Shown in pieces: positions 6,788 through 40,903 of a stretch of 64,000 nt of DNA. The stretch is from Flavobacteriales bacterium (GTDB lineage: Bacteria > Bacteroidota > Bacteroidia > Flavobacteriales_D > Sanyastnellaceae): NCBI GenBank assembly GCA_015665315.1, contig JADFAK010000021.1, positions 454 through 64,453 of the forward strand, given 5' to 3'. The notes beneath the pieces were generated by a model. The model was not told the origin of the DNA and searched no databases. It was given only the letters and a program-made list of their open reading frames with translations. A program made the position numbers and the translations under genes. Positions within the stretch are counted from its first letter, which is position 1. The number at the start of each line of letters is the position of its first letter.

Positions 6788-9700
6788 ATGCTTTCACTTT
6801 TCCAAAAAATCAACAATATGACCTTATCCAACATCCAAGTGGGTATTCGGCATTTGCTTAAACCAGCAATCATTGCCCTGTGCCTATTGGTAGTAACTGG
6901 GCTATCGGCTCAACAGCACTTGTCTTCAGGTGTAGACTACCTGAAGAAGAACGCAGAGCAACTAAAAGTCAATGAAAAAGACTTGGACGGCATGCAATTA
7001 ACCCATGTTACTAAAGGCGCTCGTGGTGCCTTTGAAGTTGCTTATTTGCAGCAGACAAAAGGGGGGATTTCTATCCACAATCGAATTATCAATGTCATGT
7101 ATGACGGATCTGGAAAGATCGTAGGTCATTCGGGAACATTGGCAGATAACCTTGAACGTTCAAATATTCCAACTTCTCCAGCGATCTCTCCGATTGATGG
7201 ATTGAAGTCGGCTGCAATGGCTTTGAAGCTTGGGCAGATTGGCGACGTTGTTGTATTAGAGCCTGGACAAGGAGCTGAGCAAAAAGGTATTCTTTCAAAA
7301 GGAGCTATTTCGCAAGATGATATCGTTTTCAGACTTGTTTACCAAGATTTTGGAAAACTGGGAATCAAACTTACTTGGGAGTACGTTATTTATGAAAACA
7401 GCAGTAAGCACTGGTGGCAGATTCGTATAGATGCGCAATCTGGTCAGTACGTTGATAAAAACGACTGGGTGAGCAGCTGTAACGTTGATCATTCATTGAC
7501 TGAAGGTCGCGGACATATTCACGGAGCGAGTTGTGCTGAAGGCCCAGCTTATCTTCCTATGTTGGCCAACTCGTACAATGTATATGGTATGCCAACTGAG
7601 TCGCCAAGTCATGGTGGCCGTTCGCAACAAACTTCTCCTTGGTTGGATGGGGTAGGTTCTCCTTTCGGATGGCATGATACCAATGGTGCTGCAGGAGCAG
7701 AATACACCATTACAAGAGGTAACAACGTATGGGCTTCAGAAGATCAGGATGCCAACAACGTGGCTGGATTCAGCCCAGATGGAGGAGCAACTTTGGACTT
7801 CGACTTTCCTGAGAACTTAGGTGGTGCGCCTTCTACATATCAGGAAGCAGTTATTACCAACTTGTTTTACTGGAACAACATTATTCATGATGTCCTCTAC
7901 AACTACGGTTTCGATGAGGCCAGTGGAAACTTTCAAGAAAACAACTACGGAAATGGTGGTGCAGGAGCGGATTACGTAATTGCAGATGCTTTGGACGGAA
8001 GTGGAACGAACAACGCAAACTTTGGAACGCCTCCAGATGGTGGTAACCCGAGAATGCAGATGTATGTTTGGACACAAACTACACCAAATAGAACTTCAGA
8101 TTATGACAATGGCGTGATTATCCACGAGTATGGTCATGGTGTGTCGAACCGACTTACTGGTGGTCCAGGGTCGGCGAGTTGCTTGGGTAACCAAGAGCAA
8201 ATGGGTGAAGGATGGAGTGATTATCTTGGCCTCATGCTTACCATGGAACCAGGTGATGCTGGAACAGACCCAAGGGGAATTGGAACATACGTATTGGGAC
8301 AACCTACAACTGGTGCTGGTATCCGTCAGTATCCATATTCAACCGATTTAGGAGTCAATCTACATACCTACGGAGATGTAGGCGGTGTAGCAGTTCCTCA
8401 CGGTGTAGGTTCTATTTGGTGTGAAATGCTTTGGGAGATGACCTGGGCATTGATTGACCAATATGGTTTTGATGCAGACGTATACAATGGCACGGGCGGA
8501 AACAACATTGCCCTTCAATTGGTTATGGACGGAATGAAGCTTCAGCCTTGTTCGCCAGGTTTTGTTGACGGACGAGATGCTATCTTGCTTGCCGATCAAT
8601 TGAACAACGGTGGAGCAAACCAATGTCTTATTTGGGAAGCTTTTGCTAAAAGAGGATTAGGATTTTCGGCCGATCAAGGTTCGTCTAACAGTGTTTCTGA
8701 CGGAACTGAGGCCTTTGATACCCCATGTTTCTGTGATCCGAATCCAGGTCCGCTTGGATGTGATGATTCAACAGCTTGTAACTACGATTCAACAGCAGGT
8801 TGCAACGACGGTTCATGTGTATACCCGGGATGTACCGATTCAGCAGCTTGTAACTACGATTCGACTGCGGGATGTGACGACGGTTCTTGTCTGCTATCAG
8901 CAGCTAGTCCAACACTTACATTGACAACAGATTGTTGGGGTGGTGAAGTTAGCTGGGAGATCCTAGATGCAGGTGGCAACCAAATTGCGACCAACCCAAT
9001 CGCTTATGGAAACCAGACAACGTACACCTATGACGGATGTATGGTGCCAGGTGCTTGTTATACCTTTATCATTTACGATTCATTCGGAGACGGACTATCT
9101 GGTATCGCTTCTGGATGTAGCACGGATGGATATTATTCTATGGTAGATGATGATGGCACATTGCTGTTTGAAATTGCTGCCGATCCAAACTACGGTTCTT
9201 CGGCGACGCATCCATTTTGCTTGGGAATTAGTACTGTGGATTGCAACGATTCTGCAGCTTGTAACTACAATCCTACTGCCACTGGTGCGACCGAATGCGA
9301 GTACCTCGATGAATGTGGTTTCTGTGGAGGAACTGGAACATTGGGATGTATGGACAGTGCAGCTTGTAACTACGATTCAGTAGCTGCATGTGACGATGGT
9401 TCGTGTGTATACCCTGGATGTACTGATTCTGCTGCTTGTAATTACGATTCGACTGCAGGATGTGACGATGGAACATGTATCGTTCCTGGTGCGACGCCAA
9501 CACTTACTCTCCTTACAGATTGTTGGGGTGGTGAAGTTTCATGGGAGATCTTGGATTCGGGTGGTAACCAAATTGCAACCAACCCAATCACCTACGGAAA
9601 CCAAACTACGTACACGTGGGATGGTTGTATGGTAGATGGTGAGTGTTATACCTTTATTATTTACGATTCATTCGGCGACGGACTTGCAGGAATTGCTTCT

Positions 9701-10819
9701 GGTTGTGCGATTGATGGTAACTACTTCATGACCGATGACGGTGGCAACATCTTATTCGAAATGGGACCAGATCCTAATTATGGGTCACAGGCAACTCACG
9801 AATTTTGCCTAGGAGGCGGTATTCAGGGATGTACTGATTCTACTGCGTGTAACTACGATTCAACAGCAACTGTCGACGATGGTTCATGCCTCGTGTTCGA
9901 TGCTTGTGGAGTATGTGGAGGAACAAGTGTCGCAGGATGTAACAATCCGGCAGCGTGTAACTTCAATTCATTGGCCGATTGCGATGATGGGTCTTGTACC
10001 TTCCCAGGATGTATGGATTCTACAGCTTGTAACTACGATTCAACTGCAGGATGTAGTGATGGATCTTGTACTTACCCAGGTTGTACTACGCTTATTGCCT
10101 GTAATTACAACGCTTCGGCAGGTTGCGATGACGGATCATGTACCTTCCCAGGATGTCAGAATCCAGCGGCTTGCAACTTTAACCCAGCGGCAGGTTGTAA
10201 CGATGGATCATGTGTATTCCCAGGATGTATGGATACTGCGGCCTGTAACTACAGCGCAGCAGCTGCTTGTGACGATGGTTCATGTACTTACCCAGGATGT
10301 ACCATTTCTACAGCGTGTAACTATGATTCGACAGCAGGTTGCGACGACGGTTCGTGTACAACAGCAGGTTGTATAGATACAGCTGCTTGTAACTATGATT
10401 CAGGTGCTTCATGTGACGATGGATCATGTACATATCCAAGTAACGTGTACTATGCTGATACGGATACTGATACTTATGGTGATCCACTCGTGTCAATTAC
10501 TGTATGCGGAGCTGCTCCGGCAGGTTACGTTAGCGATAACACCGATTGTGACGATACGAACGATGCGATGTACCCAGGTGCTCCCCCAACGGCGCAAGGC
10601 ATTGATAACGATTGCAATGGAACAGTCGATCCAGATGAGGCCGCACCTTGCTTAGGTGACTTTGACTTCAACGGAACGATCGACGTGCAAGACTTGCTTA
10701 TATTCTTAGGTGACTTTGGATGTCAGTCAAGCTGCTTTGCCGATTTAAATGGCGACGATCAAACCAATGCAGCAGATATTTTGATCTTCTTAGGTCTGTT
10801 CGGAACGGACTGCCCATAA
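6788..10819 (+). CDS. Secreted M36 (fungalysin-family) metalloprotease with a multi-domain Cys-rich tail and a dockerin-like C-terminus
   Basis: Signal peptide and an FTP-like propeptide. Zinc motif HEYGHGVSNRLTGGP at 8123. Tail: 13 CNYD mini-repeats (8759-10438), two copies of a 109-aa CWGGEVSWEI...YDSFGDGL module, a MopE-like DxDxDxxG...DNDCNG motif (10447-10640) and a double dockerin-like module (10649-10816). Confidence 0.85.
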   Translation: MLSLFQKINNMTLSNIQVGIRHLLKPAIIALCLLVVTGLSAQQHLSSGVDYLKKNAEQLKVNEKDLDGMQLTHVTKGARGAFEVAYLQQTKGGISIHNRIINVMYDGSGKIVGHSGTLADNLERSNIPTSPAISPIDGLKSAAMALKLGQIGDVVVLEPGQGAEQKGILSKGAISQDDIVFRLVYQDFGKLGIKLTWEYVIYENSSKHWWQIRIDAQSGQYVDKNDWVSSCNVDHSLTEGRGHIHGASCAEGPAYLPMLANSYNVYGMPTESPSHGGRSQQTSPWLDGVGSPFGWHDTNGAAGAEYTITRGNNVWASEDQDANNVAGFSPDGGATLDFDFPENLGGAPSTYQEAVITNLFYWNNIIHDVLYNYGFDEASGNFQENNYGNGGAGADYVIADALDGSGTNNANFGTPPDGGNPRMQMYVWTQTTPNRTSDYDNGVIIHEYGHGVSNRLTGGPGSASCLGNQEQMGEGWSDYLGLMLTMEPGDAGTDPRGIGTYVLGQPTTGAGIRQYPYSTDLGVNLHTYGDVGGVAVPHGVGSIWCEMLWEMTWALIDQYGFDADVYNGTGGNNIALQLVMDGMKLQPCSPGFVDGRDAILLADQLNNGGANQCLIWEAFAKRGLGFSADQGSSNSVSDGTEAFDTPCFCDPNPGPLGCDDSTACNYDSTAGCNDGSCVYPGCTDSAACNYDSTAGCDDGSCLLSAASPTLTLTTDCWGGEVSWEILDAGGNQIATNPIAYGNQTTYTYDGCMVPGACYTFIIYDSFGDGLSGIASGCSTDGYYSMVDDDGTLLFEIAADPNYGSSATHPFCLGISTVDCNDSAACNYNPTATGATECEYLDECGFCGGTGTLGCMDSAACNYDSVAACDDGSCVYPGCTDSAACNYDSTAGCDDGTCIVPGATPTLTLLTDCWGGEVSWEILDSGGNQIATNPITYGNQTTYTWDGCMVDGECYTFIIYDSFGDGLAGIASGCAIDGNYFMTDDGGNILFEMGPDPNYGSQATHEFCLGGGIQGCTDSTACNYDSTATVDDGSCLVFDACGVCGGTSVAGCNNPAACNFNSLADCDDGSCTFPGCMDSTACNYDSTAGCSDGSCTYPGCTTLIACNYNASAGCDDGSCTFPGCQNPAACNFNPAAGCNDGSCVFPGCMDTAACNYSAAAACDDGSCTYPGCTISTACNYDSTAGCDDGSCTTAGCIDTAACNYDSGASCDDGSCTYPSNVYYADTDTDTYGDPLVSITVCGAAPAGYVSDNTDCDDTNDAMYPGAPPTAQGIDNDCNGTVDPDEAAPCLGDFDFNGTIDVQDLLIFLGDFGCQSSCFADLNGDDQTNAADILIFLGLFGTDCP

Positions 10820-11148: not shown

Positions 11149-11310
11149 TCTCGCTCTCTGAACTGTCTATAATTCTCGCTTCTCGTTCTCGCACTCTATG
11201 CTGTCTATAATTCTCGCCTCTCGCTCACACACTCTATACTGTCTTGAATTCTCGCTTCTCGCTCTCGTACTCTATACTGTCTTCGCTTCTCGCTCTCTAT
11301 TCTGTCTTTA
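11149..11310. repeat. Tandem array of about 38-bp TCTCGC-rich units (4-5 copies)
   Basis: Units such as ttctcgcttctcgttctcgcactctatgctgtctataa repeat head to tail. The last unit overlaps the stop codon of the 11308-15264 gene. Confidence 0.8.
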
Positions 11311-14300
11311 GTTGCAAGCTGTTCCAAAAACTGAGAGAAATAGAAGTAAGTCGGTTGTGTCAACCATGTCATCATCGGTCAAATCCACAGTGCAACTCGA
11401 TTGGCAACCGAAGCCTGAAAGAAGTTGAAGTAAATCATTGGTATCAATCACCATGTCACCATTAAAGTCTCCTAAACATCCGGCAGCCGTTGTTTCAATA
11501 ACCTGAATTTTGAATGAAGCTTCCTGTGTTCCTACGCCATCTAATCGAACCCGATAGTTTGATCCTGGGTTCAGGCCAGAAAGCTCTAGTGTTTCCGCAG
11601 TTTCATCTCCGTAATTATCGACACAAGCAATTTCATTTAATGATTCACAATTGCCGCTAAAAGCAGTCAGCCGCATATTGAAAATTGGAGTGAGCATATT
11701 GACTTCGCTTGTAACAATTTCAACGCTACCAGTAGCTGGGGCAGTGAATCCATACCAAACCGTTCTTCCAGTACTAACCGAGCAAGAGCTAATAGGCCCA
11801 TTGGCCTGGCTAGCACATTCATTTGAGCCAAAGGAAGGATCTTCGTTGACTTGAAGTAAGATAAAGTCGGCACATTCATCGTGAGGCACTTCGCACACTT
11901 GCGCTTCAAAACAGCCCATGTCTACCGTAGAGAGATAGATGCGTTGATTTCCAGCTAGGTCGGTTAGCAAATTTGAGGCACTATTCAGCCCTGAATTATA
12001 TGCTTGACTGTTTGCGGAAATTTTGAAATTGCCGGCGCTTGGATCTAAGAAATTTGGATTGCAATCGAAAATACTGGTCCCAGTGGCTCCTCCTTCAATA
12101 ATACAATGTGACGGTATGATGTTGCCCGCGCCGAATTGGACATTGTAGGTGCTAAAGTTATTCCACACGATGCAATTGGTGAATTCACCTCCAGCACCAT
12201 CTATTGTGAGGCTAGTTCCAGAGCCTGAGGTAGCTATGTTCTCGGTAAATGTGCAATTGATGATTTCGGACGTTGCTTGATTTAAAACCCGGAGAGCGGC
12301 ATTTGTATTGGACGTGTTTTGATAAAAGAGACAATTCTCGACTACACTTGTGCCGCTATAGATATCCATTGCTCCAGTGATTGTTCCACCGGTGTTGTTT
12401 TCAAAAATTGAATTAGATATTTCGGCAGTTGCCCCGATAATTGTCAGGGTACTTCCAAGACTTGTTGCCGTATTGTCGGAAAAAACACACTCACTAATCG
12501 TTCCGGCCGATCCTGTATTGAGAATCAGCGCCGCTCCTGAAGTGGCGGCAACATTTCCTTGAAAAAGTGTGTTTGTAAAATCGAATAGGCCATTTGTGCT
12601 AACTGCTCCACCAGAACCGCCCGAAGTGTTGTTGATAAAGGAAGAATTAGAAACATGTAAATCAGACCCTGCAGAGGCTAGTACAACTGCTGTTGCACCT
12701 GCAGTAATATCTTCAAAAATGCAATTGTCGGCATAGATTTCACTTCCAGATTGAAAGAAGAAAGCTCCGGCGAAATTGGCATAGTGGCCTGTAAATGTAC
12801 AATTCGCAAGGTTGACTTGTGTACTTACAACTCGCATGGCAGCGCTATTGTTGTTGCTGCCTGACCCATCGGCATAGCCATCGCTGATAATCAATCCATC
12901 CAAGATAATGACGCCTGCCGCGGCCAGGTCTATCAGTCGATAAGAATTGTCGGTAGAGGCGGCCGTCCCAATATTACCACTCATTACCGTTGGATTGGCC
13001 GACCAGTCTCTTTGGCTGTGCAGAATTTCATTTCCTTGGAAACCGCCATATAGTGCGCAATCGTCAGGGATGTCGAAGGTAATGCTTCTGTCATTCGTTG
13101 AGGTAGGGAAGTAGGTTCCTTCAGCAACCCAAATTTCGTTTCCAGGTGAGAACACGGCCAGAGCATCTTGAAGGTCGACAAAAGCATCTTGCCACGACGA
13201 ACCGTCATTTGCCCCTGTGGCATCTTGATCAACGTATAATGTATTGCTTGAATAGTATTCGAAACAGCCCACGTCGGCAGTTCCGTTCCAAATTCTTTGC
13301 TCATGCGCGAGGTCTAGGTTCAGACTAGAATAGGCATTTGATCCGTAATCAATGGCTGGGGAGGTGGGAAGCAGACTAAAATCACCTGCAGCTACATCGG
13401 CAAAAAGTGGCGATTGCATTAACGTGTCGCCAATGACATTTATCGCGCTGCTTTGGTATACATCGAGGATAACCTTGTCGGCAGTGATCGGGGTACTGCC
13501 AAAAGCTTTGTGGTCGTCGTTGTCCCAAATGATCGAGTTGTAGACCTCCGCCGAACCAAACGATGTTCCACCAATTACCGAACCATATGATTGTTCAAAT
13601 ATATTTTGGGAGAACGTGGAATTGAAAATTGAGGCAATTGCATTTGTACCAACATATACAATGGAGCCTCCGTCGTTGTTGTTTTGTCGTACAAGACAAT
13701 TGTCCATGGATAGGTGGCTATTTGGTCCAACAAATACAGCTGCCTGTGTGTTGGCGGTGCAAAAACGTATGTCGCAATGACGGATATCAAGTTCGGTTGC
13801 TGTATTCATATAAATTGCGCCACTTAGGTTGTTGTTGTCGTTCACATCTCTGTATGCATATCTGAACTCGAATCCATCAACAAGAGTATTGGTTCCTTGG
13901 ACAACTAGGATGCGGTAAGAATTGTCGGTTATGTCTCCAATAACACCTATTGCTCCGGATAAGATAGTCTTGTTTTCGTTCCAATCTCTTTGACCGCGGA
14001 AAGATTCATTACCGATAAAACCGCCATATAAACTCACACCTGACCCCAATTGGAAATTGATGTTGCGGTCGGTGGATGTTGTAGGCTTGTACACACCTTG
14101 GGCAACCCAAATTTGGTCGCCGCTGTTGGAGAAGCTTAGGGCATCTTGGAGATCGACAAATGCATTGTTCCAAGATGAGCCATCGTTTTCACCTGTTGCG
14201 GTGAGATCAACGTAGAGTCGACGGTCGGTTTGCATCTCATAACAACCTGCGTCAATTACTGTGTTCCAGACCCTGGGTTGTCCGGCTAAATCGAGATTTT

Positions 14301-15264
14301 CGTTAAAAAGACCATTTTGACCGAAATCTTGAGCTGGCGAACCTGAGGTAAGTTGATAATTATTGCTGCCGGGGTCTTCAAATAGAGGATCTTGATCCAG
14401 CACGTCTCCAATTGTATAATTAAGTGAATTTTGGATAATATCAAGAACACAATTGTCGATTTCCCCACTGGGAGAGCCGAATGGATTGTGCATGTCGTTG
14501 TCCCAGATAATGTCGTTGTAGGCTATAAACAGGCTGGTACTATGTCCGCCGATAACCGACCCAAATGTTTGTTCAAATTTGTTTTGGGATAAGGTGCAAT
14601 TATAGATTTTGGCTACGGCGTTCACATTAAGATCTATGATTCCACTTATGTCGGTCGTGTTGTCGTGCACCAGGCAATTAACCATGATGAGATAGGTGTC
14701 TGTTAGTCCTCCTACGGCGGGTCCCGCTAGTGCTAGGTTATTGTATATCGTGCAGTTTACTAGATCCATACTGGCACCGTCGTCCATATAGACTCCACCA
14801 CGTGGATAAAATACATCGGTAAATTCTCGGTAAGCTTTTTTAATGCCAAATCCGTCGACGACAATATTAGAACCATGTGCGAAAATCACATTGTATGAGT
14901 TGTCAGCCGCAGTTGATTGACTGCCTATTGCTCCAGAAAGTTCAGTGACATTGGTTGCCCAGTCCCTTTGATCTCTTTGTGTTTCTGTACCATCAAAACC
15001 GCCGTATAACTCAATACCAGAATTGATATCGAATCGAATATCTCGATCGGTCGTTGTAGTTGGCTTGTAAATTCCTTCAGCCACCCATATTTCATCGTTG
15101 GCTCCAGCTACAGCCAGGGCATCTTGTAAATCGGTAAATGCGTTATTCCAGGATGCGCCTGAGTTGGTACCTGTGGCGTCTTTGTCGACGTAAATAACAG
15201 CCGCTTGACTTGAAAAGGTGAGGGTGCAGGCCAGTACCCAAAGTAGTAGGTTGCGTGTATTCAT
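11308..15264 (-). CDS. Secreted right-handed beta-helix repeat protein with a dockerin-like C-terminus
   Basis: Signal peptide. Three tandem copies of a roughly 325-aa unit that starts YVDxxATGxNxGSSWxxAFxDLQDAL...IWVAxGxYKPT. Then long Asn/Gly/Thr-rich helix turns, a Cys-containing beta-sandwich-like domain and a double dockerin-like module (11311-11475). Confidence 0.8.
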   Translation of the reverse strand: MNTRNLLLWVLACTLTFSSQAAVIYVDKDATGTNSGASWNNAFTDLQDALAVAGANDEIWVAEGIYKPTTTTDRDIRFDINSGIELYGGFDGTETQRDQRDWATNVTELSGAIGSQSTAADNSYNVIFAHGSNIVVDGFGIKKAYREFTDVFYPRGGVYMDDGASMDLVNCTIYNNLALAGPAVGGLTDTYLIMVNCLVHDNTTDISGIIDLNVNAVAKIYNCTLSQNKFEQTFGSVIGGHSTSLFIAYNDIIWDNDMHNPFGSPSGEIDNCVLDIIQNSLNYTIGDVLDQDPLFEDPGSNNYQLTSGSPAQDFGQNGLFNENLDLAGQPRVWNTVIDAGCYEMQTDRRLYVDLTATGENDGSSWNNAFVDLQDALSFSNSGDQIWVAQGVYKPTTSTDRNINFQLGSGVSLYGGFIGNESFRGQRDWNENKTILSGAIGVIGDITDNSYRILVVQGTNTLVDGFEFRYAYRDVNDNNNLSGAIYMNTATELDIRHCDIRFCTANTQAAVFVGPNSHLSMDNCLVRQNNNDGGSIVYVGTNAIASIFNSTFSQNIFEQSYGSVIGGTSFGSAEVYNSIIWDNDDHKAFGSTPITADKVILDVYQSSAINVIGDTLMQSPLFADVAAGDFSLLPTSPAIDYGSNAYSSLNLDLAHEQRIWNGTADVGCFEYYSSNTLYVDQDATGANDGSSWQDAFVDLQDALAVFSPGNEIWVAEGTYFPTSTNDRSITFDIPDDCALYGGFQGNEILHSQRDWSANPTVMSGNIGTAASTDNSYRLIDLAAAGVIILDGLIISDGYADGSGSNNNSAAMRVVSTQVNLANCTFTGHYANFAGAFFFQSGSEIYADNCIFEDITAGATAVVLASAGSDLHVSNSSFINNTSGGSGGAVSTNGLFDFTNTLFQGNVAATSGAALILNTGSAGTISECVFSDNTATSLGSTLTIIGATAEISNSIFENNTGGTITGAMDIYSGTSVVENCLFYQNTSNTNAALRVLNQATSEIINCTFTENIATSGSGTSLTIDGAGGEFTNCIVWNNFSTYNVQFGAGNIIPSHCIIEGGATGTSIFDCNPNFLDPSAGNFKISANSQAYNSGLNSASNLLTDLAGNQRIYLSTVDMGCFEAQVCEVPHDECADFILLQVNEDPSFGSNECASQANGPISSCSVSTGRTVWYGFTAPATGSVEIVTSEVNMLTPIFNMRLTAFSGNCESLNEIACVDNYGDETAETLELSGLNPGSNYRVRLDGVGTQEASFKIQVIETTAAGCLGDFNGDMVIDTNDLLQLLSGFGCQSSCTVDLTDDDMVDTTDLLLFLSVFGTACN

Positions 15265-17103: not shown

Positions 17104-17367
17104 GGCTTTGTGTTTTTGTTTTGATAAAACTACGTGTGAAGTCGGTGACGAACAATTCAATTTTTACAAAAAACGTATTTTAAGAATGTGTGCAGTATGC
17201 GACTAATGCTTCTTGAAAAAAGAACTTGATTGTTGAAATACGTACTAAAAATAACAGCGAGTGTTTGAATTAGTACCAGGTGTGTTCTTTGGCTTTTAAG
17301 TGGACTTCCAGTTTCTCTAAGTTGGACTTGAAGGATGGAGCGAGTATTTAGGAGGTTTGGGAATATT

Positions 17368-18089: not shown

Positions 18090-18107
18090 GACATTAAAAA
18101 GAACACA

Positions 18108-30149: not shown

Positions 30150-30721
30150 GATAATTGATAATTAGTTTGTTGATGAAGCCGTTGTTCGACTAATCAAATG
30201 CTAAATTATAAAATTCATAGGATCTCGAAAGACCCCAAGCTTGTTTATTGAACAGGTATGGGGGAATATCCTGAAGCCAAGACAACTTCGTTCATTCCCA
30301 TTCAACACAAATGGCTATTCAGAAGATGTAAAATCGATCCACCGAGGGCTAGGGATTGTTTCATGACTGTGGTTATTTTTACACGACTGTCCGCAAGGTA
30401 TCACCGGGACTAACGCCGTGGGAATTTTGCTCATTTGATCGATATGAGGCGCAAAGACTTTTTGTCCTCACCAGGTATAGAACGATGAAGTTGTAAAGCA
30501 TCGTGTCGTGTTAAGAAGAAACTACATATCCCGAAATTCGAGTAAATCCTGTCCCTTGAGACAATATATAGGTGGAAATTTGTCTGCCCAACAGAATTTC
30601 CGAGCTTTTCGGCACTGGATTCCCATGGCTAACTGCAATGAAATCATCAAATCCATTCATGCTCCGGGTCAGCGGTTAAAACGTTGGTGCTACTTTGAGG
30701 ATAGTCATTTATCTTTATAGC

Positions 30722-33700
30722 ATGAACAAAGTGTTGATTGTGTCCATATGTGCATTTGCCCTTGTGGCTAGTTGCAAAACGCATGAAGTAACTTCAAGTG
30801 CCAATGATCTAGGCACTGCTGAAAATAACGAGACGGAATCGGGTGCATTGTTCTCTCAAGTACCATCCAGTCATTCGCATGTTGATTTTGTGAATCGTTC
30901 AATTGAGACGGTAGCGCGAAATATTGCCGACTATGATTATTTCTACAATGGGGGTGGAGTTGCGATTGGGGATTTGAATAAGGATGATTTGCCAGACTTG
31001 TTTTTTGCGGGGAATGATGTGCCGAGCAAGATGTATTTCAATCAAGGAGACATGCAATTCAAGGATGTCACGGAGAAAGCTGGGATTTCGGGAAATAGAT
31101 GGAGTACGGGAGTTTCCATGGTTGATGTGAATGGCGACGGTTGGTTGGATATTTATGTGTGCAATTCAGGTCCCGATGCCGATTCTTTATCGACAGAGAA
31201 CGAAATGTGGATCAATCAGCAAGACGGGACTTTTATCGATGAAAGCGTAGCCATGGGCATCAATGACCCGGCGCTCTCAACGCAGGCCGTGTTTTTTGAT
31301 ATGGACAATGATGGGGATCAGGATTTGTGGGTGCTGAATCATTCGGAGCGCGGATTGGGAAATCAGGCCTACGAATGGCTTGGGGCAATGAAAGCCTTGC
31401 CTTTTGAAAAGCAGCGACTCCTGAGCAATACCATTTACGAAAACGAGGGCAATGGTCATTATAAAGATGTTACCACGCGATCGGGTTTGAGAAATCCAGG
31501 ATTCGGCTTGGGGATTTCGTTGAGTGATTTCAACCATGACGGATTGCTAGATGTCTATGTCGCCAATGATTTTTTTATTCCCGACCTCTACTATATCAAT
31601 GAGGGACAAGGGAAGTTCAAAGAAGTGAGCAAAGAGAAACTCAAGCACATCTCCTTTTTCTCGATGGGTTGTGATGCGGCCGATATGAACAACGACGGTC
31701 TGAGTGATCTCTATGTTTTGGACATGGCCTCACGCGATCACGTGCGCAGCAAGACCAACATGAACTCCATGAGCATTCCCGAGTTTCGGTTTTTGAAAAA
31801 TGATTTGGGCTACATCGGTCAGTTCATGACCAATATGCTGCACTTGAATCGCGGAGACGGCGAGATGAGTGAAATAGGTCATTTGGCAGGGGTTGATCGA
31901 ACCGACTGGAGTTGGGCTCCTTTGATGGCCGATTTCGATAATGATGGTTGGAAAGATATTTATGTCACCAACGGCATGAAAAGGGACATCAAGAACAACG
32001 ACTGGCGCATCGAATTGCTGGGGATGCTAGGCGATCCAGATTACGATCGCGCGATGTATTTCGACCATTTGCAAAAAGCGCCAAAGACTCCTTTGAGTAA
32101 CATGATGTTCCAAAACAAGGGGGATCTGACCTTTGACGATAAATCGGCGGCATGGGGCTTGACCTTGCCTTCCTTCTCAAACGGGGCGGCCTATGCAGAT
32201 TTGGATTTGGATGGAGACTTGGACCTGGTCACAAACAATCTTGACGACCTCGCCACGATATGGAAGAACAATGCGAGTGCAAGCGAAAAAGGAAATTTCG
32301 TGCAATTGGAGTTGATCGGAGATGCTTCCATGGTCCACGGGGCTGAAGTTCAAATTACAACTTCCTCGGGCAGTCAAACATGCGAAAATTTATTCACCAG
32401 AGGATATGCTTCTTCGGTCGAACCGGTCATTCATTTTGGGATAGGGGCAGAGCAGCAAGTGTCCAAAATTCAGTTCACTTGGCGTGACGGCACACAATCA
32501 GAAATCAACAACGTTCAGGCCAATCAGCGCTTGAAAGTCCAAGTTTCGGAGCTTTTGAAACTCGCTGTAGATGAAGCGCCAATCACTCCTTTTTTCGAGG
32601 ATGAGTCCAAAGCGATTTTGGGCAAGAATGTATACCACCATGAAAATGCCTGGGACGATTTTGAGAAGGAGATCCTTTTGCCGCATCAAATGACTCGAAT
32701 GGGGCCGGGAGTTGCAGTTGGAGACATGAACGGCGACGGACTGCAGGATTTCTTCTTGGGCGCCGGCACGACCAATCCGTCGCGCTTGTTTATCCAAAAG
32801 GACGGCATTTTCTCTGCTGTTCAAGACGATTTTAAGCTCAATCGCAACGCAGAGATTATCGACGCCTGCTTTTTCGATGTCGACAACGATGGGGATTTGG
32901 ATTTATACGCTGCAAGTGGTGGAGGTGGAGAGTTTGTCGATAGAGAAGCGGGATTGCAAGACGTGCTGTATCTCAACGATGGAACGGGCCATTTCAATGC
33001 CGCAGCAGATTTTCCAGTGTCCTTGAAAAGTTCAGGTGCCGTGCAGCCCATCGACGTGGACAATGATGGCTGGATGGATGTTTTCGTGGGAACGCGCAAT
33101 GTTCCGGGAAAATATGGGGCTTCCGATTCGTCGGTCTTTCTGAAAAATGAGGGCGGACTATTAGTCGATCGCACCGAGGAGTATTTGGATGGAATAGCAG
33201 ATTTTGGCATGGTGACCGATGTCGTTGCTGAAGACCTGAATGCCGATGGATTGCAAGATCTGATCCTGGTTGGAGATTGGATGAATGTCACGGTGTTGAT
33301 CAATCGGCGAAGCAATTTTGACTTGGTAGAACATCAAGCTTTGCGCAATACGGAAGGCTGGTGGCGAAGCATACATAAAGTAGATGTCGACCAAGATGGG
33401 GACATGGATTTCGTCCTCGGAAACATAGGGGAGAACAACAAGTTTCACCCAAGTCAGGACCATCCCTTGCATCTATTTGCCGGCGATTTCGACGCGAGTT
33501 CGACGTGGGATATTGTATTGAGCAAGGAGTACAAGGACAAATTGGTTCCGGTTCGAGGTAAGGAATGTTCGACCGCTCAGATGCCCTTTGTGGCCTATAA
33601 ATTTCCAACGTACGATCAGTTTGCCTCCTCTTCTGTTTACGATATTCTGGGCAAGAGCGCTTTGGATACATCGGTTCATCGAGTGGCTCACACCTTTTCT

Positions 33701-34069
33701 CACGTCGTCATCGAGAACCTCGGCGAGTTCAAGTTTAAGGTGCATGATATGCCGCGACAAGCGCAAATGTCTCCTCTGTACGGCCTAGCCAGTGGCGACT
33801 GGGATAAGGATGGGAATTTGGATTTGCTGTTGGCTGGCAATGAAACGGGGACGGAAGTAGAAACAGTTCCCTATGATGCTGGTAAAGGGCTTGTGCTCTT
33901 CAATAATTCACGGATGACTAGCGGAGCAAGGTTCGAGATGGACCTCCGAAGACTCGGAGTGGAATTCGATGGGAATGTAAAATCGATGAATTGGATCTCC
34001 GTAAATGGAGAATTAAAATTATTGGTCGTGGAAAATGCTGGGTCAGTGAAAATGGTCTCAGTGAAGTAA
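30722..34069 (+). CDS. FG-GAP/VCBS-repeat plus ASPIC/UnbV-domain lipoprotein (CRTAC1-like)
   Basis: Lipobox LVASC, many DxNxDGxxD FG-GAP/VCBS repeats and a central UnbV_ASPIC-like segment (GAEVQITTSSGSQT...VIHFGIG...FTWRDG). Confidence 0.8.
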   Translation: MNKVLIVSICAFALVASCKTHEVTSSANDLGTAENNETESGALFSQVPSSHSHVDFVNRSIETVARNIADYDYFYNGGGVAIGDLNKDDLPDLFFAGNDVPSKMYFNQGDMQFKDVTEKAGISGNRWSTGVSMVDVNGDGWLDIYVCNSGPDADSLSTENEMWINQQDGTFIDESVAMGINDPALSTQAVFFDMDNDGDQDLWVLNHSERGLGNQAYEWLGAMKALPFEKQRLLSNTIYENEGNGHYKDVTTRSGLRNPGFGLGISLSDFNHDGLLDVYVANDFFIPDLYYINEGQGKFKEVSKEKLKHISFFSMGCDAADMNNDGLSDLYVLDMASRDHVRSKTNMNSMSIPEFRFLKNDLGYIGQFMTNMLHLNRGDGEMSEIGHLAGVDRTDWSWAPLMADFDNDGWKDIYVTNGMKRDIKNNDWRIELLGMLGDPDYDRAMYFDHLQKAPKTPLSNMMFQNKGDLTFDDKSAAWGLTLPSFSNGAAYADLDLDGDLDLVTNNLDDLATIWKNNASASEKGNFVQLELIGDASMVHGAEVQITTSSGSQTCENLFTRGYASSVEPVIHFGIGAEQQVSKIQFTWRDGTQSEINNVQANQRLKVQVSELLKLAVDEAPITPFFEDESKAILGKNVYHHENAWDDFEKEILLPHQMTRMGPGVAVGDMNGDGLQDFFLGAGTTNPSRLFIQKDGIFSAVQDDFKLNRNAEIIDACFFDVDNDGDLDLYAASGGGGEFVDREAGLQDVLYLNDGTGHFNAAADFPVSLKSSGAVQPIDVDNDGWMDVFVGTRNVPGKYGASDSSVFLKNEGGLLVDRTEEYLDGIADFGMVTDVVAEDLNADGLQDLILVGDWMNVTVLINRRSNFDLVEHQALRNTEGWWRSIHKVDVDQDGDMDFVLGNIGENNKFHPSQDHPLHLFAGDFDASSTWDIVLSKEYKDKLVPVRGKECSTAQMPFVAYKFPTYDQFASSSVYDILGKSALDTSVHRVAHTFSHVVIENLGEFKFKVHDMPRQAQMSPLYGLASGDWDKDGNLDLLLAGNETGTEVETVPYDAGKGLVLFNNSRMTSGARFEMDLRRLGVEFDGNVKSMNWISVNGELKLLVVENAGSVKMVSVK

Positions 34070-34168: not shown

Positions 34169-34426
34169 ATGACTAACTTATGCATGGCCATTTTTATGGC
34201 CCTTGTTTTAGGTTCACAAGGTGAGCCTTCAGCTACATCGCTGGACGCGATGCTCTGTCCCTACGATCTCAATGGCGACGGGGTTGTTAATAACCCAGAT
34301 TTATTGCTGTTTCTTTCCAAATATGGCCAAGTAGGCGTGTACGATCAGGATTTTGACGGCAATGGCTCAGTAGGAATTACAGATTACATTGAGTTTATGC
34401 GTTACAAAGGAGGTGTGTGTCCATGA
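34169..34426 (+). CDS. Stand-alone dockerin/EF-hand-like mini-protein, cassette 1 (A1)
   Basis: 85 aa: a hydrophobic N-terminus MTNLCMAIFMALVLGSQG, then CPYDLNGDGVVNNPDLLLFLSKYG and DQDFDGNGSVGITDYIEFMRYKGGVC. 80% identical to A2 (68/85 by hand count). Confidence 0.65.
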   Translation: MTNLCMAIFMALVLGSQGEPSATSLDAMLCPYDLNGDGVVNNPDLLLFLSKYGQVGVYDQDFDGNGSVGITDYIEFMRYKGGVCP

Positions 34427-35307
34427 AAAAGATACTAGCTCTTTTAGCATTGGCGCTGATAAGCGCGGGTGCTAGTTCGCAAGTTGTTCAAATTTGGTTA
34501 GTCCCAGACACGGTGTATGTCGATGAATATGTCGGCGACTTTGAAACTGTGGAGGCAGGATCAGTTGTTTATGGATTTTATTTAGAAATGTTGCATGCCG
34601 ATGATGTTGTGTCGACCATTTACGGGGATGCAACAAATCCACTCGTTCTTGAGACAACGACGAGTTTTTTCACCACTATATTGGGGCTTGCGCCATCTCC
34701 GTCGAACTATGATTTATTCACTTCAATTGCTCCCGAACTTGGGTCGAGTACATATTTGACAATTACGGGTGAGGAGGAAACGTGTATTGACAATAGCATC
34801 TTATTGCTGTCAAATTCAGATAACCCATGGACGGATGAGCTGTTGCTTGGGCAAAGTGCTTTTGTGGATGATATAATTGGCGGTGGTTGGGGCGTGGAGC
34901 CCATCTTTTACCCTGCTTGCACTCCTGCTGGCGAAGACCACATGTATAGAATAGGGCAATTTACTACCACGGGTGTATTTTCGGGTGTAATCAATGTGCA
35001 GACCTTCATTCATGGAGTTCAGCTGGATTATTCGTTGGATACAGGATTGGTCTTTGGACCCGATAATATAGCGGAATTGGGATGTATGGATCCGGAGGCG
35101 ATGAACTACGATTCGAGTATTTTGTTTGGTGATGACTCTTGTTTGTATTTAGGTGACTTAAACGGCGACGGCGAGGTAAATACAGGTGATGTGCTTAACT
35201 TTTTAGGGGCATATGGGTGTGAAGTCGACTGTGGACCGGCCGACATGAATGGCGATGGAGTTGTCAACGCGCAGGATCTACTGATTTTATTGGGACAATT
35301 TGGATAA
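34423..35307 (+). CDS. Secreted protein with an unknown N-domain, one CNYD unit and a double dockerin-like C-terminus, cassette 1 (B1)
   Basis: The ATG overlaps the A1 stop (ATGA), with AAGGAGG 10 nt upstream. Signal peptide MKKILALLALALISAGASSQ. C-terminus CLYLGDLNGDGEVNTGDVLNFLGAYGCEVDCGPADMNGDGVVNAQDLLILLGQFG. Confidence 0.7.
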   Translation: MKKILALLALALISAGASSQVVQIWLVPDTVYVDEYVGDFETVEAGSVVYGFYLEMLHADDVVSTIYGDATNPLVLETTTSFFTTILGLAPSPSNYDLFTSIAPELGSSTYLTITGEEETCIDNSILLLSNSDNPWTDELLLGQSAFVDDIIGGGWGVEPIFYPACTPAGEDHMYRIGQFTTTGVFSGVINVQTFIHGVQLDYSLDTGLVFGPDNIAELGCMDPEAMNYDSSILFGDDSCLYLGDLNGDGEVNTGDVLNFLGAYGCEVDCGPADMNGDGVVNAQDLLILLGQFG

Positions 35308-35488
35308 AATGAAACGCCCTGATTTTGGTGATCGGACTATCAGGAACAAGGTGCTAGGCCTCTTGTTTATTGCACTTTCTTTGCAAAGCAACAAAGTGCA
35401 TGGCTTAAGATCAAGAATCTTAATTGGTAGTTTTAAAATTGATTTTTAGGTTCCTTTAATAGGGATGTTTTTTCTATGATGCAAACAT

Positions 35489-35496
35489 TAAATTTG
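35489..35496 (+). promoter_or_regulatory. Candidate -7 box (TAAATTTG) directly upstream of A2
   Basis: Exact TAnnTTTG match ending 5 nt before the ATG at 35502. This would imply a leaderless or nearly leaderless mRNA. Copy 1 has TAAACTTT instead. Confidence 0.3.
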
Positions 35497-35501
35497 ATAC
35501 C

Positions 35502-35759
35502 ATGACTAACTTATGCATGGCCCTTTTCATGGCCCTTGCTCTAGGTTCACAAGGTGAGCCTGAGGCTCCTTCGCTCGATGCGATGATCTGTCCCTATGAC
35601 TTCAACGACGATGGGATAGTTAACAACCAAGATCTCTTGATATTCCTAACAAAATATGGCCTAGTTGGAGACTTTGATCAAGATTTTGATGGAAATGGCT
35701 CGGTAGGGATTACCGACTATATTGAATTCATGCGTTATAAAGGATCGGCATGTCAATGA
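35502..35759 (+). CDS. Stand-alone dockerin/EF-hand-like mini-protein, cassette 2 (A2)
   Basis: 85 aa, paralogue of A1. Confidence 0.65.
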   Translation: MTNLCMALFMALALGSQGEPEAPSLDAMICPYDFNDDGIVNNQDLLIFLTKYGLVGDFDQDFDGNGSVGITDYIEFMRYKGSACQ

Positions 35760-36634
35760 AATCAATTGTCACATTAATTGGAGGAATGCTGCTTCTACTG
35801 GGCGTTCAAGGTCAAGTTACTCAGGTGTGGTTGGTGGTCGATACAGTTTATACCGAAGAGCAAGTAGGAACTTTTGGGACCGTAGAGGCCGGATCGGTCG
35901 TGTATGACCTGTATTTAGAGCTGATGCATAGCGATGATAAGGTCTCTACGATGTATGGAGATACTACTCATCCCATGCTCATCGAGACAACTACAAGCTT
36001 TTTCGTCGCTGCTGAGCTAGGCATCGCGCCGAATAACTATGAACTTATGTCCTCCCTGTTTCCTGAAATACGGGCATCCACGCGCGTTGGAGTGAACAAT
36101 GACCAAAGTGAGTGTAGCTCTCAGAATATTTATTTGATCAGTTCAGAACAAAATGATTGGGTTGCCAATTTGAACGATGGTCAGTCCGTGAATCTGGACG
36201 ATTTCATAGGAGGTGGATGGGGAGTTGAGGCGTATGCCGACCAGGGATGCAATGAAGCTGGCGACGACCTATTGGTTTGGATAGGACGGTTCACTACAAC
36301 CGGTGTTTTTTCGGGAGTTCTGAATGTACAGTCTTTTATCCATGGAATTCCCCTTGATTATGATTTGGCCGAGGATCTACCCTTTGGGCCGGATAGCATA
36401 ACCGAATTCGGGTGTACCGATTCTACGGCCGGAAATTACAATCCCAATGCACAATTGGACGATGGAAGTTGCGCTGCTTTGGGAGATCTCAATGGCGATG
36501 GGATGATAGACATCGACGACCTTCTTGATTTTTTAGGATCATTTGGATGTGCGGATGATTGCGGGCCCGTCGACTTGAACGACGATGGCATTGTAAATAT
36601 CCTCGACTTGTTGATCCTTCTTGGAATGTTATAA
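35756..36634 (+). CDS. Secreted protein with an unknown N-domain, one CNYD unit and a double dockerin-like C-terminus, cassette 2 (B2)
   Basis: The ATG overlaps the A2 stop (ATGA). Colinear with B1, sharing blocks TVEAGSVVY, ETTTSFF, IGGGWGVE, FTTTGVFSGV and NVQxFIHG. Confidence 0.7.
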   Translation: MKSIVTLIGGMLLLLGVQGQVTQVWLVVDTVYTEEQVGTFGTVEAGSVVYDLYLELMHSDDKVSTMYGDTTHPMLIETTTSFFVAAELGIAPNNYELMSSLFPEIRASTRVGVNNDQSECSSQNIYLISSEQNDWVANLNDGQSVNLDDFIGGGWGVEAYADQGCNEAGDDLLVWIGRFTTTGVFSGVLNVQSFIHGIPLDYDLAEDLPFGPDSITEFGCTDSTAGNYNPNAQLDDGSCAALGDLNGDGMIDIDDLLDFLGSFGCADDCGPVDLNDDGIVNILDLLILLGML

Positions 36635-36638
36635 AAAT

Positions 36639-38640: not shown

Positions 38641-40800
38641 CTAGCATTGTGTGCCAAAAAGACCAAGGAAAATAAGTAGGTCGCTGGTGTTGGCTATGCC
38701 GTCGTTATCCAAGTCAAATGCACAAAAATCCACGCAGCCGATGCCGCCGAGAAAGCTCAGCAAGTCAACGGTGTCAACGGAATTGTCGTTGTTGAAGTCG
38801 CCCAAACACCCTGCGGATTGCAGATTAAGGATCTGGGTTGAGGCATGACTTCCGCAGCTATTTGACACCGTGAGCATGACGTCGAATTGTCCGGCCGCAG
38901 CGTAATCGTAAACCGGAGAACTACTGGTGTTCAGGGCCGAAGCATCACCAAAATCCCACGCGTATGTCAAAGGCCAGCCCATCGGATTTCCTGAACTTTG
39001 ATCGGTGAAACTTACTTGAAGTCCGTTTGTGACATAAGTGAAATCCGACGTTGGTGACTGACCGAAATCACCGTTGCCTGGATCGGGAAAAGCAGGGTTT
39101 ATTTGTGAGCCATTGAGGTCAAAACCCAATCCTTGCCAGCTAGCAAAATTCATCGATTGCCAGGGGTTCGTAGGTTGGAATGGTAAGGCAATGGACGGAC
39201 TCCAATAGGTGTTGTAGTCGATTTGATAATTCACGCTGAAATCACCGTACATATGTGTGGTGTTGGAGGTGGCGTCGGTGTAGAATAGATTGTGGTAAAA
39301 GTATCCCTGTTGTCCGCTTATTACACTTACCGCATCGTGTGGCATTGTCGCTGGGGTGTAAAATTTATTTCTGTAAACGCGGTATTGTACATCGGTGTCG
39401 AGAATGTAGATATCGTTGATGGGGTTATTGAAGAAGTGATTGTCTCTAATGGCGACATCTTTGACGCTGTATCCGAAGACCCCAAAACCTTGGTTTCCTG
39501 TGGTGAGATCATGAATTTGACAATTTTGAACGATCGCTTTTCTGAAGTGTCCGGTGTTATCGTTGTTGCCATTGCTGAAGTCGATTCCGTTGTTGGTGCC
39601 TGTGATGTCACAACCATCTATGAGACAATATTCAAAGTCTTCTTGGTAGCTGGGCGCGTTCATGTTCAGACAAAAATTCCGATTGACTGATTGTCCGAAT
39701 GTGACCCAGCGAATGACGGTATGATCGCAGTGGTTGATATACATGTGGTGATCGAGAAGTGCGTTGCCGTTTCCACCATCAAAATGTCCGCCGATGACTG
39801 CTACATATGGATTGTCGGCGGGTACAAAGCTTTGTTTCGCCGTTTGATTAGCGTGGAAATCACATTCCCAAACGAGGAAGGCTTGCTTCGTACCTGAGCC
39901 TGTCGTGATGATCAACCCTTCGTTGTTGCCATTTTGCAAGGTGCAATCGGCGAATACCATACGCTCGACGCTTCCGGAAGGATCAGCATAGGCGAAGAAC
40001 AAGGCTCCACTCACGTTGTTTCCATCAAAGACTAAGTCTTGGTATACATGATCGGTAACATTCTGATTTGTGCCATTTAGAAAAATCGTGCGGCTGGCGG
40101 ATAATCCTGAATTGGTCATTAAAACAGGATCACTTCCTACACCATAGGCTCCCATGCGTATTCCCGATTTTTTCGTGGTCAAAGTCGCAGAGACATCAAC
40201 GGTCGTCCCGCGCTTGAACAATACGCGTCGGTTATTGCCTCCGTTGATCCACGAGATGGCCTGCGTCCAAGTTTGCCAAGGCGTCGCCACAGAAAGCCCA
40301 TCGTTGAGGTCATCCCCAGAAATAGGGTCGACGTAACGATCTTGTCCGCTCCAAGCCGAAATAGTCACAGATTTAGAAGTTGAGGTCGAGATGTAATTGG
40401 AGCCGTCCCACCCGCGAACGGTGAGCGTAATCTGATAAGTCCCCGGCGTCTCATACAAATAGCACGCTTCCGGTCCGCGTTGGTCCGTGTTGGCCGATTG
40501 AACCATGCCATCGACCGGGTGCGCTATGGTGCCTTGGCCCGTGGGAGAATTGTCTCCAAAATCCCAGGAATATTCCAGATCGTAGTAGGGTTCGAGGGTT
40601 CCGACTGCCGTGGTTTGGAAGGCCGAAACATAAATGGCGACCGGAGCTTCACCCGCTGAATCTGGATAGTGAATCTGTGGGGAAATGGAAGAAATTGTCA
40701 CTTCAGAATTGCCGCCAAACCCATTTCCTGGACAAGAAGGAATTTGAGCGATTGCGACCCCAAAGGTCATTAGAAATAGAAGGGTTAGTAGCTGTCTCAT
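38641..40800 (-). CDS. Secreted PKD-domain / right-handed beta-helix protein with a double dockerin-like C-terminus
   Basis: ATG at 40800 gives the signal peptide MRQLLTLLFLMTFGVAIAQ. Two PKD-like domains (YSWDFGDNSP..., YAWDFGDASA...) flank a beta-helix core. C-terminus CLGDFNNDNSVDTVDLLSFLGGIGCVDFCAFDLDNDGIANTSDLLIFLGLFGTQC. Confidence 0.75.
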   Translation of the reverse strand: MRQLLTLLFLMTFGVAIAQIPSCPGNGFGGNSEVTISSISPQIHYPDSAGEAPVAIYVSAFQTTAVGTLEPYYDLEYSWDFGDNSPTGQGTIAHPVDGMVQSANTDQRGPEACYLYETPGTYQITLTVRGWDGSNYISTSTSKSVTISAWSGQDRYVDPISGDDLNDGLSVATPWQTWTQAISWINGGNNRRVLFKRGTTVDVSATLTTKKSGIRMGAYGVGSDPVLMTNSGLSASRTIFLNGTNQNVTDHVYQDLVFDGNNVSGALFFAYADPSGSVERMVFADCTLQNGNNEGLIITTGSGTKQAFLVWECDFHANQTAKQSFVPADNPYVAVIGGHFDGGNGNALLDHHMYINHCDHTVIRWVTFGQSVNRNFCLNMNAPSYQEDFEYCLIDGCDITGTNNGIDFSNGNNDNTGHFRKAIVQNCQIHDLTTGNQGFGVFGYSVKDVAIRDNHFFNNPINDIYILDTDVQYRVYRNKFYTPATMPHDAVSVISGQQGYFYHNLFYTDATSNTTHMYGDFSVNYQIDYNTYWSPSIALPFQPTNPWQSMNFASWQGLGFDLNGSQINPAFPDPGNGDFGQSPTSDFTYVTNGLQVSFTDQSSGNPMGWPLTYAWDFGDASALNTSSSPVYDYAAAGQFDVMLTVSNSCGSHASTQILNLQSAGCLGDFNNDNSVDTVDLLSFLGGIGCVDFCAFDLDNDGIANTSDLLIFLGLFGTQC

Positions 40801-40903
40801 GGGTGCTTTTCTAATTTGGTAAGTGAACTGGTTTCTGTGTAGCGCACTTGTCCGCAAGAAGAATTCTCCTAACAAGACTAGCGCGCAGGCCTAATTGTTG
40901 CAA

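Follow-up and report, generated by a model that had tools for sequence, protein, structure and literature searches.

We analysed a stretch of 64,000 nucleotides from a Flavobacteriales bacterium (contig JADFAK010000021.1 of assembly GCA_015665315.1; hereafter the window), in which eight open reading frames (ORFs) between 6.8 and 40.9 kb encode secreted proteins with a common cysteine-framed tail, amounting to 15 F-hand units. We are highly confident that these tails are genuine dockerin modules. To judge from their sequences, they would be a lineage-specific form of the dockerin stapled by disulfides, and they probably, with less assurance, function as docking tags. The explanation that we favour overall, and to which we give an even chance, is that the stapled tag docks on a cohesin-like domain, named here the B domain, which is found in two of the eight proteins. 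The finding exceeds a case of orphan dockerins because a testable partner hypothesis exists; if the B domain is not the receptor, the tags remain orphan dockerins. Three elements deserve curation: a large unannotated B-domain family, a putative covalent dockerin clasp and a minimal dockerin with one F-hand.

Dockerin-type tails on eight secreted proteins

The carriers are an M36 peptidase, a beta-helix protein, two mini-proteins (A1 and A2), two proteins with the B domain (B1 and B2), a 567-aa protein (P567) and a PKD-domain protein. Fourteen of the F-hand units were recovered by a six-frame regular-expression (regex) scan of the whole window, all inside seven of these ORFs. The 15th, in P567 (36704-36799 (-)), was read by inspection and has Asp or Asn at loop positions 1, 3, 5 and 12. 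Seven of the eight carriers bear two units and P567 bears one; all eight begin with a Sec-type signal peptide, and no lipobox was found on any of them. Four other enzyme or B tails are 47-54 % identical to the tail of the M36 peptidase, and the A tails 28-32 %. A sequence-only reading of this DNA had announced eight ORFs with a common tail; translation indeed returns the tails that it quoted, and the scan detected no F-hand unit outside the named ORFs. It had also described the unit as usually a tandem pair joined by C-x3-C. The pair is present in seven of the eight carriers, but C-x3-C is only one of three cysteine patterns.

We searched the PDB with a profile of the seven double tails and observed that the dockerin 2Y3N_B comes out first (E 6e-10), followed by 2CCL_B, 6KG9, 1OHZ_B, 2MTE and 1DAQ, with calmodulins only after the dockerins. 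In an AlphaFold2 (AF2) model of full-length B1, built from 12 sequences and with a mean pLDDT of 63, the tail blocks reach 74-81 and the tail superposes on 2Y3N_B with a TMt of 0.79, a root-mean-square deviation of 1.4 Å, 42 % identity and a probability of 1.0. In addition, B1 scores 28.2 bits with PF00404 (Dockerin_1), above the cutoff of 22.9 bits. These three results agree with the dockerin-type F-hand that had been recognized from sequence alone. With the EF-hand models of Pfam, the carriers gave sub-threshold matches only.

The models TIGR04183, TIGR04131 and PF18962 match none of the eight carriers (E <= 0.01). We had considered that the tail might be a C-terminal domain (CTD) of the type IX secretion system (T9SS) or a low-complexity sequence; the absence of a TIGR04183 or PF18962 match, together with the dockerin profile matches, rules this out. 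This supports the reading that the tail is not a T9SS CTD; as positive controls in the same window, such a CTD is detected on the proteins encoded at 40904-42811 and, weakly, at 24007-26388.

As in type I dockerins (PF00404; 2Y3N_B, 1OHZ_B, 2CCL_B), the tail consists of a duplicated F-hand of about 22 aa, in which a helix comes after a D-x-[DN]-x-[DN]-G-x-[VI]-[DN]-x-x-D loop, and it probably binds Ca2+. Like them, it lies at the C-terminus of secreted enzymes, with termini that would meet at a clasp (PMC3821032). Unlike them, it occurs in a Gram-negative marine Flavobacteriales bacterium with a T9SS and not in a cellulolytic Firmicute, and its passengers are proteases, esterases, amylases and beta-helix or PKD proteins.

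Some model scores weigh against the docking explanation as a whole. A2 reaches 20.0 bits with PF00404, below the cutoff, and the other six carriers are not reported at E <= 0.01, so that one carrier in eight passes; among 51 tail-bearing proteins from metagenome-assembled genomes (MAGs), five are matched (E <= 1e-3). The cutoff of NF041540 ('GC-type dockerin domain-anchored protein'), 29 bits, is not reached by any of the eight window tails: B1 obtains 27.5 bits, A2 21.0, the beta-helix protein 17.7 and B2 16.9, and the M36 peptidase, the PKD-domain protein, P567 and A1 give no match. The sequence-only reading had suggested such an NCBIfam label. The label does exist, as NF041540, but the best window tail stops at the 27.5 bits of B1. 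As the window tails lie below the cutoff, the Prokaryotic Genome Annotation Pipeline would not name them. Relatives do pass it, namely the Flavobacteriales MAG tails L007 (31.3 bits) and L015 (30.7) and a B-domain protein of Planctomycetota, P0131 (33.8); since the window tails stay under a cutoff that their MAG relatives pass, we regard them as fringe relatives of NF041540. The 55-aa tails align end to end with the 67-position model and share with it the notion of an anchoring dockerin that has cysteines in its linker. The model differs in being about 12 positions longer, and neither a publication nor a receptor or mechanism is attached to it. In the literature, we found no paper using the term 'GC-type dockerin', nor any on dockerins in Flavobacteriales or on a dockerin combined with a T9SS.

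The M36 (fungalysin) metallopeptidase has 1343 aa (6788-10819 (+); PF02128, 481 bits) and is built of a signal peptide, the M36 domain, a Cys-rich stalk, a MopE motif and the dockerin tail. The latter (10649-10816 (+)) is a double F-hand in which the four cysteines, C1 to C4, are all present, and it ends one residue short of the stop. The beta-helix protein (1318 aa, 11308-15264 (-)) has choice-of-anchor Q domains (NF041518, 72.9 bits) and a double F-hand tail of the four-Cys type at 11311-11475 (-), located by translation and regex.

Further on, between 34.1 and 40.9 kb, every one of six consecutive genes is tail-bearing. A1 (34169-34426 (+), identical to P0002) is a secreted stand-alone dockerin of 85 aa, made of a signal peptide and two F-hands, with the outer Cys pair only and a linker devoid of Cys. 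B1 (294 aa, 34423-35307 (+), identical to P0122) comprises a signal peptide, the B domain (34480-35088 (+)), which the AF2 model and Foldseek describe as a beta-sandwich of about 200 aa, a Cys knot and a dockerin tail. This tail (35143-35304 (+)), found by regex and by comparison of the AF2 model with 2Y3N_B, has a CxxxC linker and lacks the terminal Cys. A2 (35502-35759 (+), identical to P0001) is a paralogue of A1, with 81 % identity over 84 aa. B2 (P0124; 292 aa, 35756-36634 (+)) is 54 % identical to its paralogue B1 and shares its layout, the B domain being at 35813-36418 (+) and its tail at 36473-36631 (+). A1 and A2, for which no coordinates had been given, are the ORFs of 85 aa that immediately precede B1 and B2. 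Another ORF of this length, at 19163-19420 (+), was discarded: it is unrelated to them and probably not a gene.

The region 34169-36634 is an A-B two-gene cassette duplicated in tandem. In both A1-B1 and A2-B2 the stop and start codons overlap as ATGA, and the B1 start is preceded, at 9 nt, by an AAGGAGG sequence; to judge from such signals, A1 and A2 are translationally coupled to B1 and B2. In P0125, P0126 and P0128 (31-36 % identity), an A-type dockerin, a B domain and a B-type dockerin are naturally fused, which indicates that A and B belong together. The cluster ends with two genes on the other strand. P567 (36701-38404 (-)) is a secreted protein with an N-domain, several Cys-knot repeats, two of which fit the strict motif, and a half dockerin. 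The PKD-domain protein (38641-40875 (-), start likely near 40800) has a four-Cys double tail at 38644-38805 (-).

The stalk of the M36 peptidase contains about 14 copies of a four-Cys 24-aa repeat, 'GCTDSxACNYDSTAGCDDGSCxYP' (aa 650-1280, window ~8735-10630), which no Pfam model matches. The four-Cys knot is also found in B2 (aa 220-239), in P567 (aa 461-531) and ahead of the tails in most MAG carriers. A domain of about 110 aa ('CWGGEVSWEILD...YTFIIYDSFGDGL...') occurs twice in the same stalk, at aa ~705-815 and ~905-1010 (window ~8900-9230 and ~9500-9820), and is likewise without a Pfam match.

Passengers and exchange with the T9SS CTD

The tail behaves like a portable tag, placed at the C-terminus of passengers that are unrelated to one another. 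This had been proposed for the window and extends to the 51 MAG proteins surveyed, which include subtilases (S8), M12 peptidases, esterases, an alpha-amylase with CBM48/CBM20/X25, vanadium chloroperoxidase (VCPO), endonuclease I, PAD, FG-GAP/ASPIC and LTD proteins, and others. The MAG loci were collected with narrower tail alignments as queries, and for this reason the sample is biased towards the motifs 'DLLIFLGLFG' and 'RVLLGQFT'. Among 209 non-redundant tail matches, about 190 have the tail 0-8 residues from the stop codon. The relatives of the tail and of the B-domain proteins come mostly from marine metagenomes, Tara included. A 1003-aa tail protein (L014) is encoded on scaffold_1 of 'Flavobacteriales bacterium DA487'. 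The TypA protein of the window organism shares 95 % identity with that of a Flavobacteriales MAG and no more than 84 % with any other.

Comparison of sequences indicates that the tail takes the place of the T9SS CTD on homologous passengers. The best NCBIfam model for the M36 peptidase of the window is that of a T9SS-dependent M36 (NF038113), with 794 bits, below its cutoff of 885; positions 779-869 of this model correspond to its CTD, according to the matches on P0190 and P0195, and the window protein has no T9SS sorting-domain match (TIGR04183/PF18962). The reverse situation is seen with the LVIVD/CarboxypepD_reg protein (24007-26388 (+)), which has a weak T9SS CTD match (PF18962, 25.5 bits, below the cutoff of 27). 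Homologues of its N-domain in three MAG loci (L003, L009 and L021; 28-31 % identity, E 1e-29 to 1e-33 by tblastn) have the dockerin tail at their end instead. A conventional T9SS cargo (Por_Secre_tail; PF18962, 43.8 bits, above 27), encoded next to the tail cluster at 40904-42811 (-), shows that the organism uses the T9SS.

Like the type A CTD of the T9SS (TIGR04183/PF18962), the tail is a portable module at the extreme C-terminus of the same kinds of secreted Bacteroidota proteins. The folds are unrelated: the CTD is a beta-sandwich of about 75 aa, whereas the tail is a helix-loop module of 30-58 aa that would bind Ca2+. If the dockerin tag alternates with the T9SS CTD within the same families of enzymes, a second localisation logic would exist in abundant uncultured marine Flavobacteriales.

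Such an exchange raises the alternative that the tail is itself an export or sorting signal, comparable to the T9SS CTD, GlyGly-CTERM or MYXO-CTERM, and marks a new class of T9SS cargo or another route through the outer membrane. The strict position of the tail at the extreme C-terminus would fit this, as would the mutual exclusion of tail and T9SS CTD on the M36 peptidase, the LVIVD protein and the giant B-domain proteins described below, and cargo lacking a CTD requires some outer-membrane route. The choice-of-anchor Q domains of the beta-helix carrier and the words 'dockerin domain-anchored' in the NCBIfam name of NF041540 point in the same direction. We nevertheless find an export signal improbable. 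The fold is that of a soluble, Ca2+-binding dockerin, with no transmembrane segment and none of the features of a beta-sandwich CTD; in the fused B proteins, A-type dockerins stand at the N-terminus, which does not suit a C-terminal signal; and no conserved candidate machinery gene recurs beside tail genes. Cellulosomal dockerins are likewise C-terminal and are not export signals.

An FG-GAP/ASPIC-UnbV lipoprotein of 1124 aa, whose signal ends in LVASC, is encoded directly upstream of A1 (30695-34069 (+)); its homologues in L031-L033 end in the dockerin tail.

Cysteine pairs and one-F-hand tails

The window tails show three cysteine states: four cysteines in the M36, beta-helix and PKD tails, the outer pair in A1, A2 and P567, and the linker pair in B1 and B2. 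We counted these positions in about 290 tails pooled from the window, 58 MAG loci and database matches. In the double units, C1 and C4 are both present in 78 tails and both absent in 50, with C1 only in 24 and C4 only in 5 (Fisher p 6e-17). The single units follow the same trend (37 both, 8 neither, 5 C1 only, 2 C4 only; p 6e-5), and 118 linkers have two cysteines, 30 have none and 6 have one. This joint presence or absence argues for C1-C4 and C2-C3 disulfides.

C1 is placed two residues ahead of the conserved Gly-Asp (position -2 from G0), and C4 is at the C-terminal end. In solved dockerins, including 2Y3N, the C-terminus and positions -3 to -1 are held together by a non-covalent 'intramolecular clasp', which is required for dockerin stability and cohesin binding (Slutzki et al., PMC3821032). 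As C1 falls within these clasp positions, the C1-C4 pair would most simply be a covalent clasp. The module would then differ from type I dockerins in having a covarying Cys pair, presumably a disulfide, in place of the clasp; it also differs in a linker shortened to G-C-x3-C and in the frequency of the one-F-hand form.

Indeed, 'half dockerins', with one F-hand framed by C1 and C4, are common (the 37 Cys-framed singles counted above), and the giant B-domain proteins usually end in one. This abundance could suggest that the tail has no receptor, being an end-cap stabilised by Ca2+ and disulfides or a self-association module that pairs single F-hands of two proteins, and that it serves to oligomerise or stabilise secreted proteins in seawater; a lone EF- or F-hand ordinarily requires a second hand to pair with. 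Outside cellulosomes, dockerin-like modules that have no cohesins are also widespread (PMC3821032, PMC6461901). We hold this to be very unlikely, for a stability cap would need neither exchange with the T9SS CTD nor free-standing forms such as A1 and A2. Moreover, the locus contains three distinct conserved subtypes, and a single fused protein combines the A and B subtypes, which suggests distinct specificities.

The covalent clasp and the one-F-hand dockerin, if confirmed, would be of interest for designer-cellulosome and protein-engineering work, and the modules are small (tags of 30-58 aa, a B domain of 200 aa) and expressible for binding assays.

The B domain as candidate partner

B1 and B2 have in common the N-terminal B domain of about 200 aa, for which neither Pfam nor NCBIfam has a model. 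We searched 1.84 billion representatives with a B-domain profile and obtained 2,622 proteins at E <= 1e-3, of which 1,233 at E <= 1e-10. The members come from MAGs of Flavobacteriales and Planctomycetota and are annotated as hypothetical protein only. In the searchable literature, neither the family nor a role for it as a divergent cohesin is described.

The architecture was read from the top 147 representatives. They contain one to five B domains per protein, with at least two in 103 of them; they are secreted, reach 3,529-3,611 aa and are devoid of catalytic domains. Between the copies lie four-Cys 'GCTDxxACNYDxxAxxDDGSC' knots and TSP3-like repeats. At the C-terminus, 47 have a Cys-framed F-hand, 13 an F-hand without the Cys frame and 27 a T9SS CTD, the others being cut by contig ends; TIGR04183 was confirmed on three representatives. 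In an independent sample, of 79 metagenome loci picked by their B domain, 32 of the 61 complete B proteins have the tail at their end; most of the others have CTD-like ends, with a CTD on 13 or more. Complete B proteins nearly always terminate in the tail or in a T9SS CTD.

The full-length B1 model gave no usable match for the N-domain, and the B domain was modelled separately with AF2 from a domain alignment of 40 sequences. The resulting model (pLDDT 90.5, pTM 0.87) is a beta-sandwich of nine main strands with short extra strands and helices. By Foldseek against 350,542 PDB chains, we observed that 28 of the top 50 neighbours are cohesins. They include the type II cohesins 3FNK (probability 0.87), 1QZN, 1ZV9 and 4WI0, as well as 2VO8 (TMt 0.52) and the archaeal 2XDH. 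The partner of our best dockerin match 2Y3N_B, 2Y3N_A, is also among the Foldseek hits.

Based on this modelled fold and on the domain architecture, the B domain may be the cohesin-like receptor of the tails, a proposal that we make tentatively and with some doubt. The sequence-only reading had recognized no cohesin-like partner. That holds at the sequence level, since none of the window ORFs yields a Pfam cohesin match at thresholds as loose as E <= 1-10, but fold and architecture now bring forward the B domain.

The likeness to cohesin modules and scaffoldins (PF00963; cellulosome, R. bromii amylosome and the proposed 'planctosome') goes beyond the modelled beta-sandwich. The domains occur as tandem copies in large non-catalytic secreted proteins, these proteins end in a dockerin, as adaptors do, or in a surface-anchoring signal, and their genes cluster with dockerin-tagged genes. 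There are also clear differences: the B domain is about 200 aa long with helical insertions, has no sequence similarity to cohesins and reaches a TM of only 0.33-0.52; the spacers are four-Cys knots and TSP3-like repeats; and the anchor would be a T9SS CTD instead of an SLH domain or a sortase signal.

In the loci picked by B domain, an additional tail gene lies within 10 kb in 27 of 79, and 29 tail genes were counted against 17 T9SS-CTD genes in 864 kb. In L006 and L023, tail genes are directly downstream of the B gene.

Several observations count against the B domain as receptor and against the docking explanation that we favour. The fold similarity is weak (TM 0.33-0.52), with all E values >= 0.01 and none at E <= 1e-3. 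An hmmsearch of the B domain against the PDB finds nothing, 40 B domains compared with Pfam at E <= 10 give no Cohesin match, and hhalign of the B domain with three type-I cohesins, a narrow cohesin profile, returns a probability of 0.1 %. Repeated beta-sandwiches are likewise typical of adhesins and of arrays of carbohydrate-binding modules (CBMs). The clustering figures stand without a proper genomic baseline, and the co-occurrence of B and tail could reflect the B domain being a frequent passenger. Finally, tagged proteins without a CTD, of up to 3,600 aa, still need a route through the outer membrane; that they hitch-hike on CTD-bearing scaffolds is pure speculation.

It is possible, though we rather doubt it, that the tail docks on another receptor, such as a classical cohesin encoded elsewhere, an outer-membrane protein (OMP) or a surface glycan, the B domain being an adhesin- or CBM-like passenger. 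Besides the missing sequence or profile likeness to cohesins, folds of CBM2, complement MG and pilins also occur in the sub-significant Foldseek list. Faint CBM48, X25 and SusF-CBM matches on the giant P0343 suggest glycan binding, and the inspection for cohesins covered 64 kb of the genome. On the other hand, cohesins are far more frequent among the top 50 neighbours than among the beta-sandwiches of the PDB, and the architecture is scaffoldin-like, complete B proteins nearly always ending in the tail or a T9SS CTD. A and B also appear to be coupled in translation, and relatives carry them as natural fusions. Neither a Pfam cohesin nor a dedicated machinery gene was found among the recurring neighbours of the tail genes in the 58 MAG loci. 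These neighbours are housekeeping or syntenic genes, which encode an ABC exporter, ValRS, a peroxiredoxin, a photolyase and a TonB receptor.

Docking on the B domain would proceed as follows. After Sec export, the disulfides of the tag would form in the periplasm and the module would fold on Ca2+, with the C1-C4 disulfide locking the N- and C-termini of the tail together; the tag would then plug into the cohesin-like B domain. B proteins ending in a T9SS CTD would be exported by the T9SS and anchored to the cell, at the outer membrane, as scaffolds, whereas those ending in the tag, B1 and B2 included, would be adaptors. A1 and A2 would be free dockerins acting on B as partners, caps or regulators. 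The tag would thus serve Sec-exported hydrolases, adhesin-like proteins and small proteins in uncultured marine Flavobacteriales, with related forms in Planctomycetota.

Cohesin-dockerin assembly is textbook knowledge for anaerobic Gram-positive cellulose degraders, and the paradigm for Bacteroidota is that of polysaccharide utilization loci together with the T9SS. Marine Flavobacteriales are major degraders of algal organic matter. Outside cellulosomes, a cohesin-dockerin 'planctosome' has been proposed for dockerin-tagged peptidases (PMC6461901). We suggest, as a speculative possibility, that marine Flavobacteriales and some Planctomycetota have a complete and unrecognised cohesin-dockerin-like assembly system made of divergent parts. 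Its parts, equally conjectural, might be arrays of B-domain receptors, full and half dockerins as plugs, CTD-anchored scaffolds, and A1 and A2 as caps or adaptors; the plugs might be carried by proteases, amylases, esterases, inhibitors and cupredoxins. If it exists, such a system would be the counterpart of the cellulosome or the amylosome among Gram-negative, pelagic bacteria.

Some B-domain loci have further features. A 3,611-aa Flavobacteriales protein (MCH1582872.1; L060 10001-20836, GCA_022428205.1) is grouped at 90 % identity with P0180, in which five B domains are followed by a half dockerin at the C-terminus. Its record shows faint CBM48/X25/SusF-CBM and weak HYR matches, and its gene is alone among housekeeping genes. 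On marine metagenome contigs, genes for small secreted proteins (160-300 aa) with a single Cys-framed F-hand tail, either Kazal-like (L085, L088) or cupredoxin/plastocyanin-like (L072, L095, L097), directly adjoin multi-B-domain genes.

Other genes of the window were noted. Directly upstream of the beta-helix gene, two tandem paralogous proteins of about 270 aa (15419-16237 (-) and 16351-17160 (-)), encoded on its strand, have signal peptides and a terminal Phe, as OMPs do. We considered this pair (u272/u269) as a receptor and set it aside, as it does not recur in the 58 MAG loci and has no Pfam match. A TPR-type HisKA_3 sensor kinase and a LuxR-type regulator (42941-45719 (+)) flank the tail cluster, which may be coincidence; in L012, L016, L019 and L029, a similar pair is located no more than 1-2 kb away from a tail gene. 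The presence of such pairs near tail genes in five loci was not retained as a link, the family being generic and the identity only 23-36 %. Between the two groups of tail genes there is a pair formed by a HigB-like toxin (PF09907) and a helix-turn-helix antitoxin (17778-18545 (+)). Finally, a polysaccharide-biosynthesis cluster (50721-61000 (-)) encodes an asparagine synthase, a hexapeptide transferase, a GT4 glycosyltransferase, a glucuronyl C5-epimerase-like protein, an O-antigen-ligase-like protein, a sugar transferase and an 828-aa protein with a weak match to the ATPase-domain model AAA_31.

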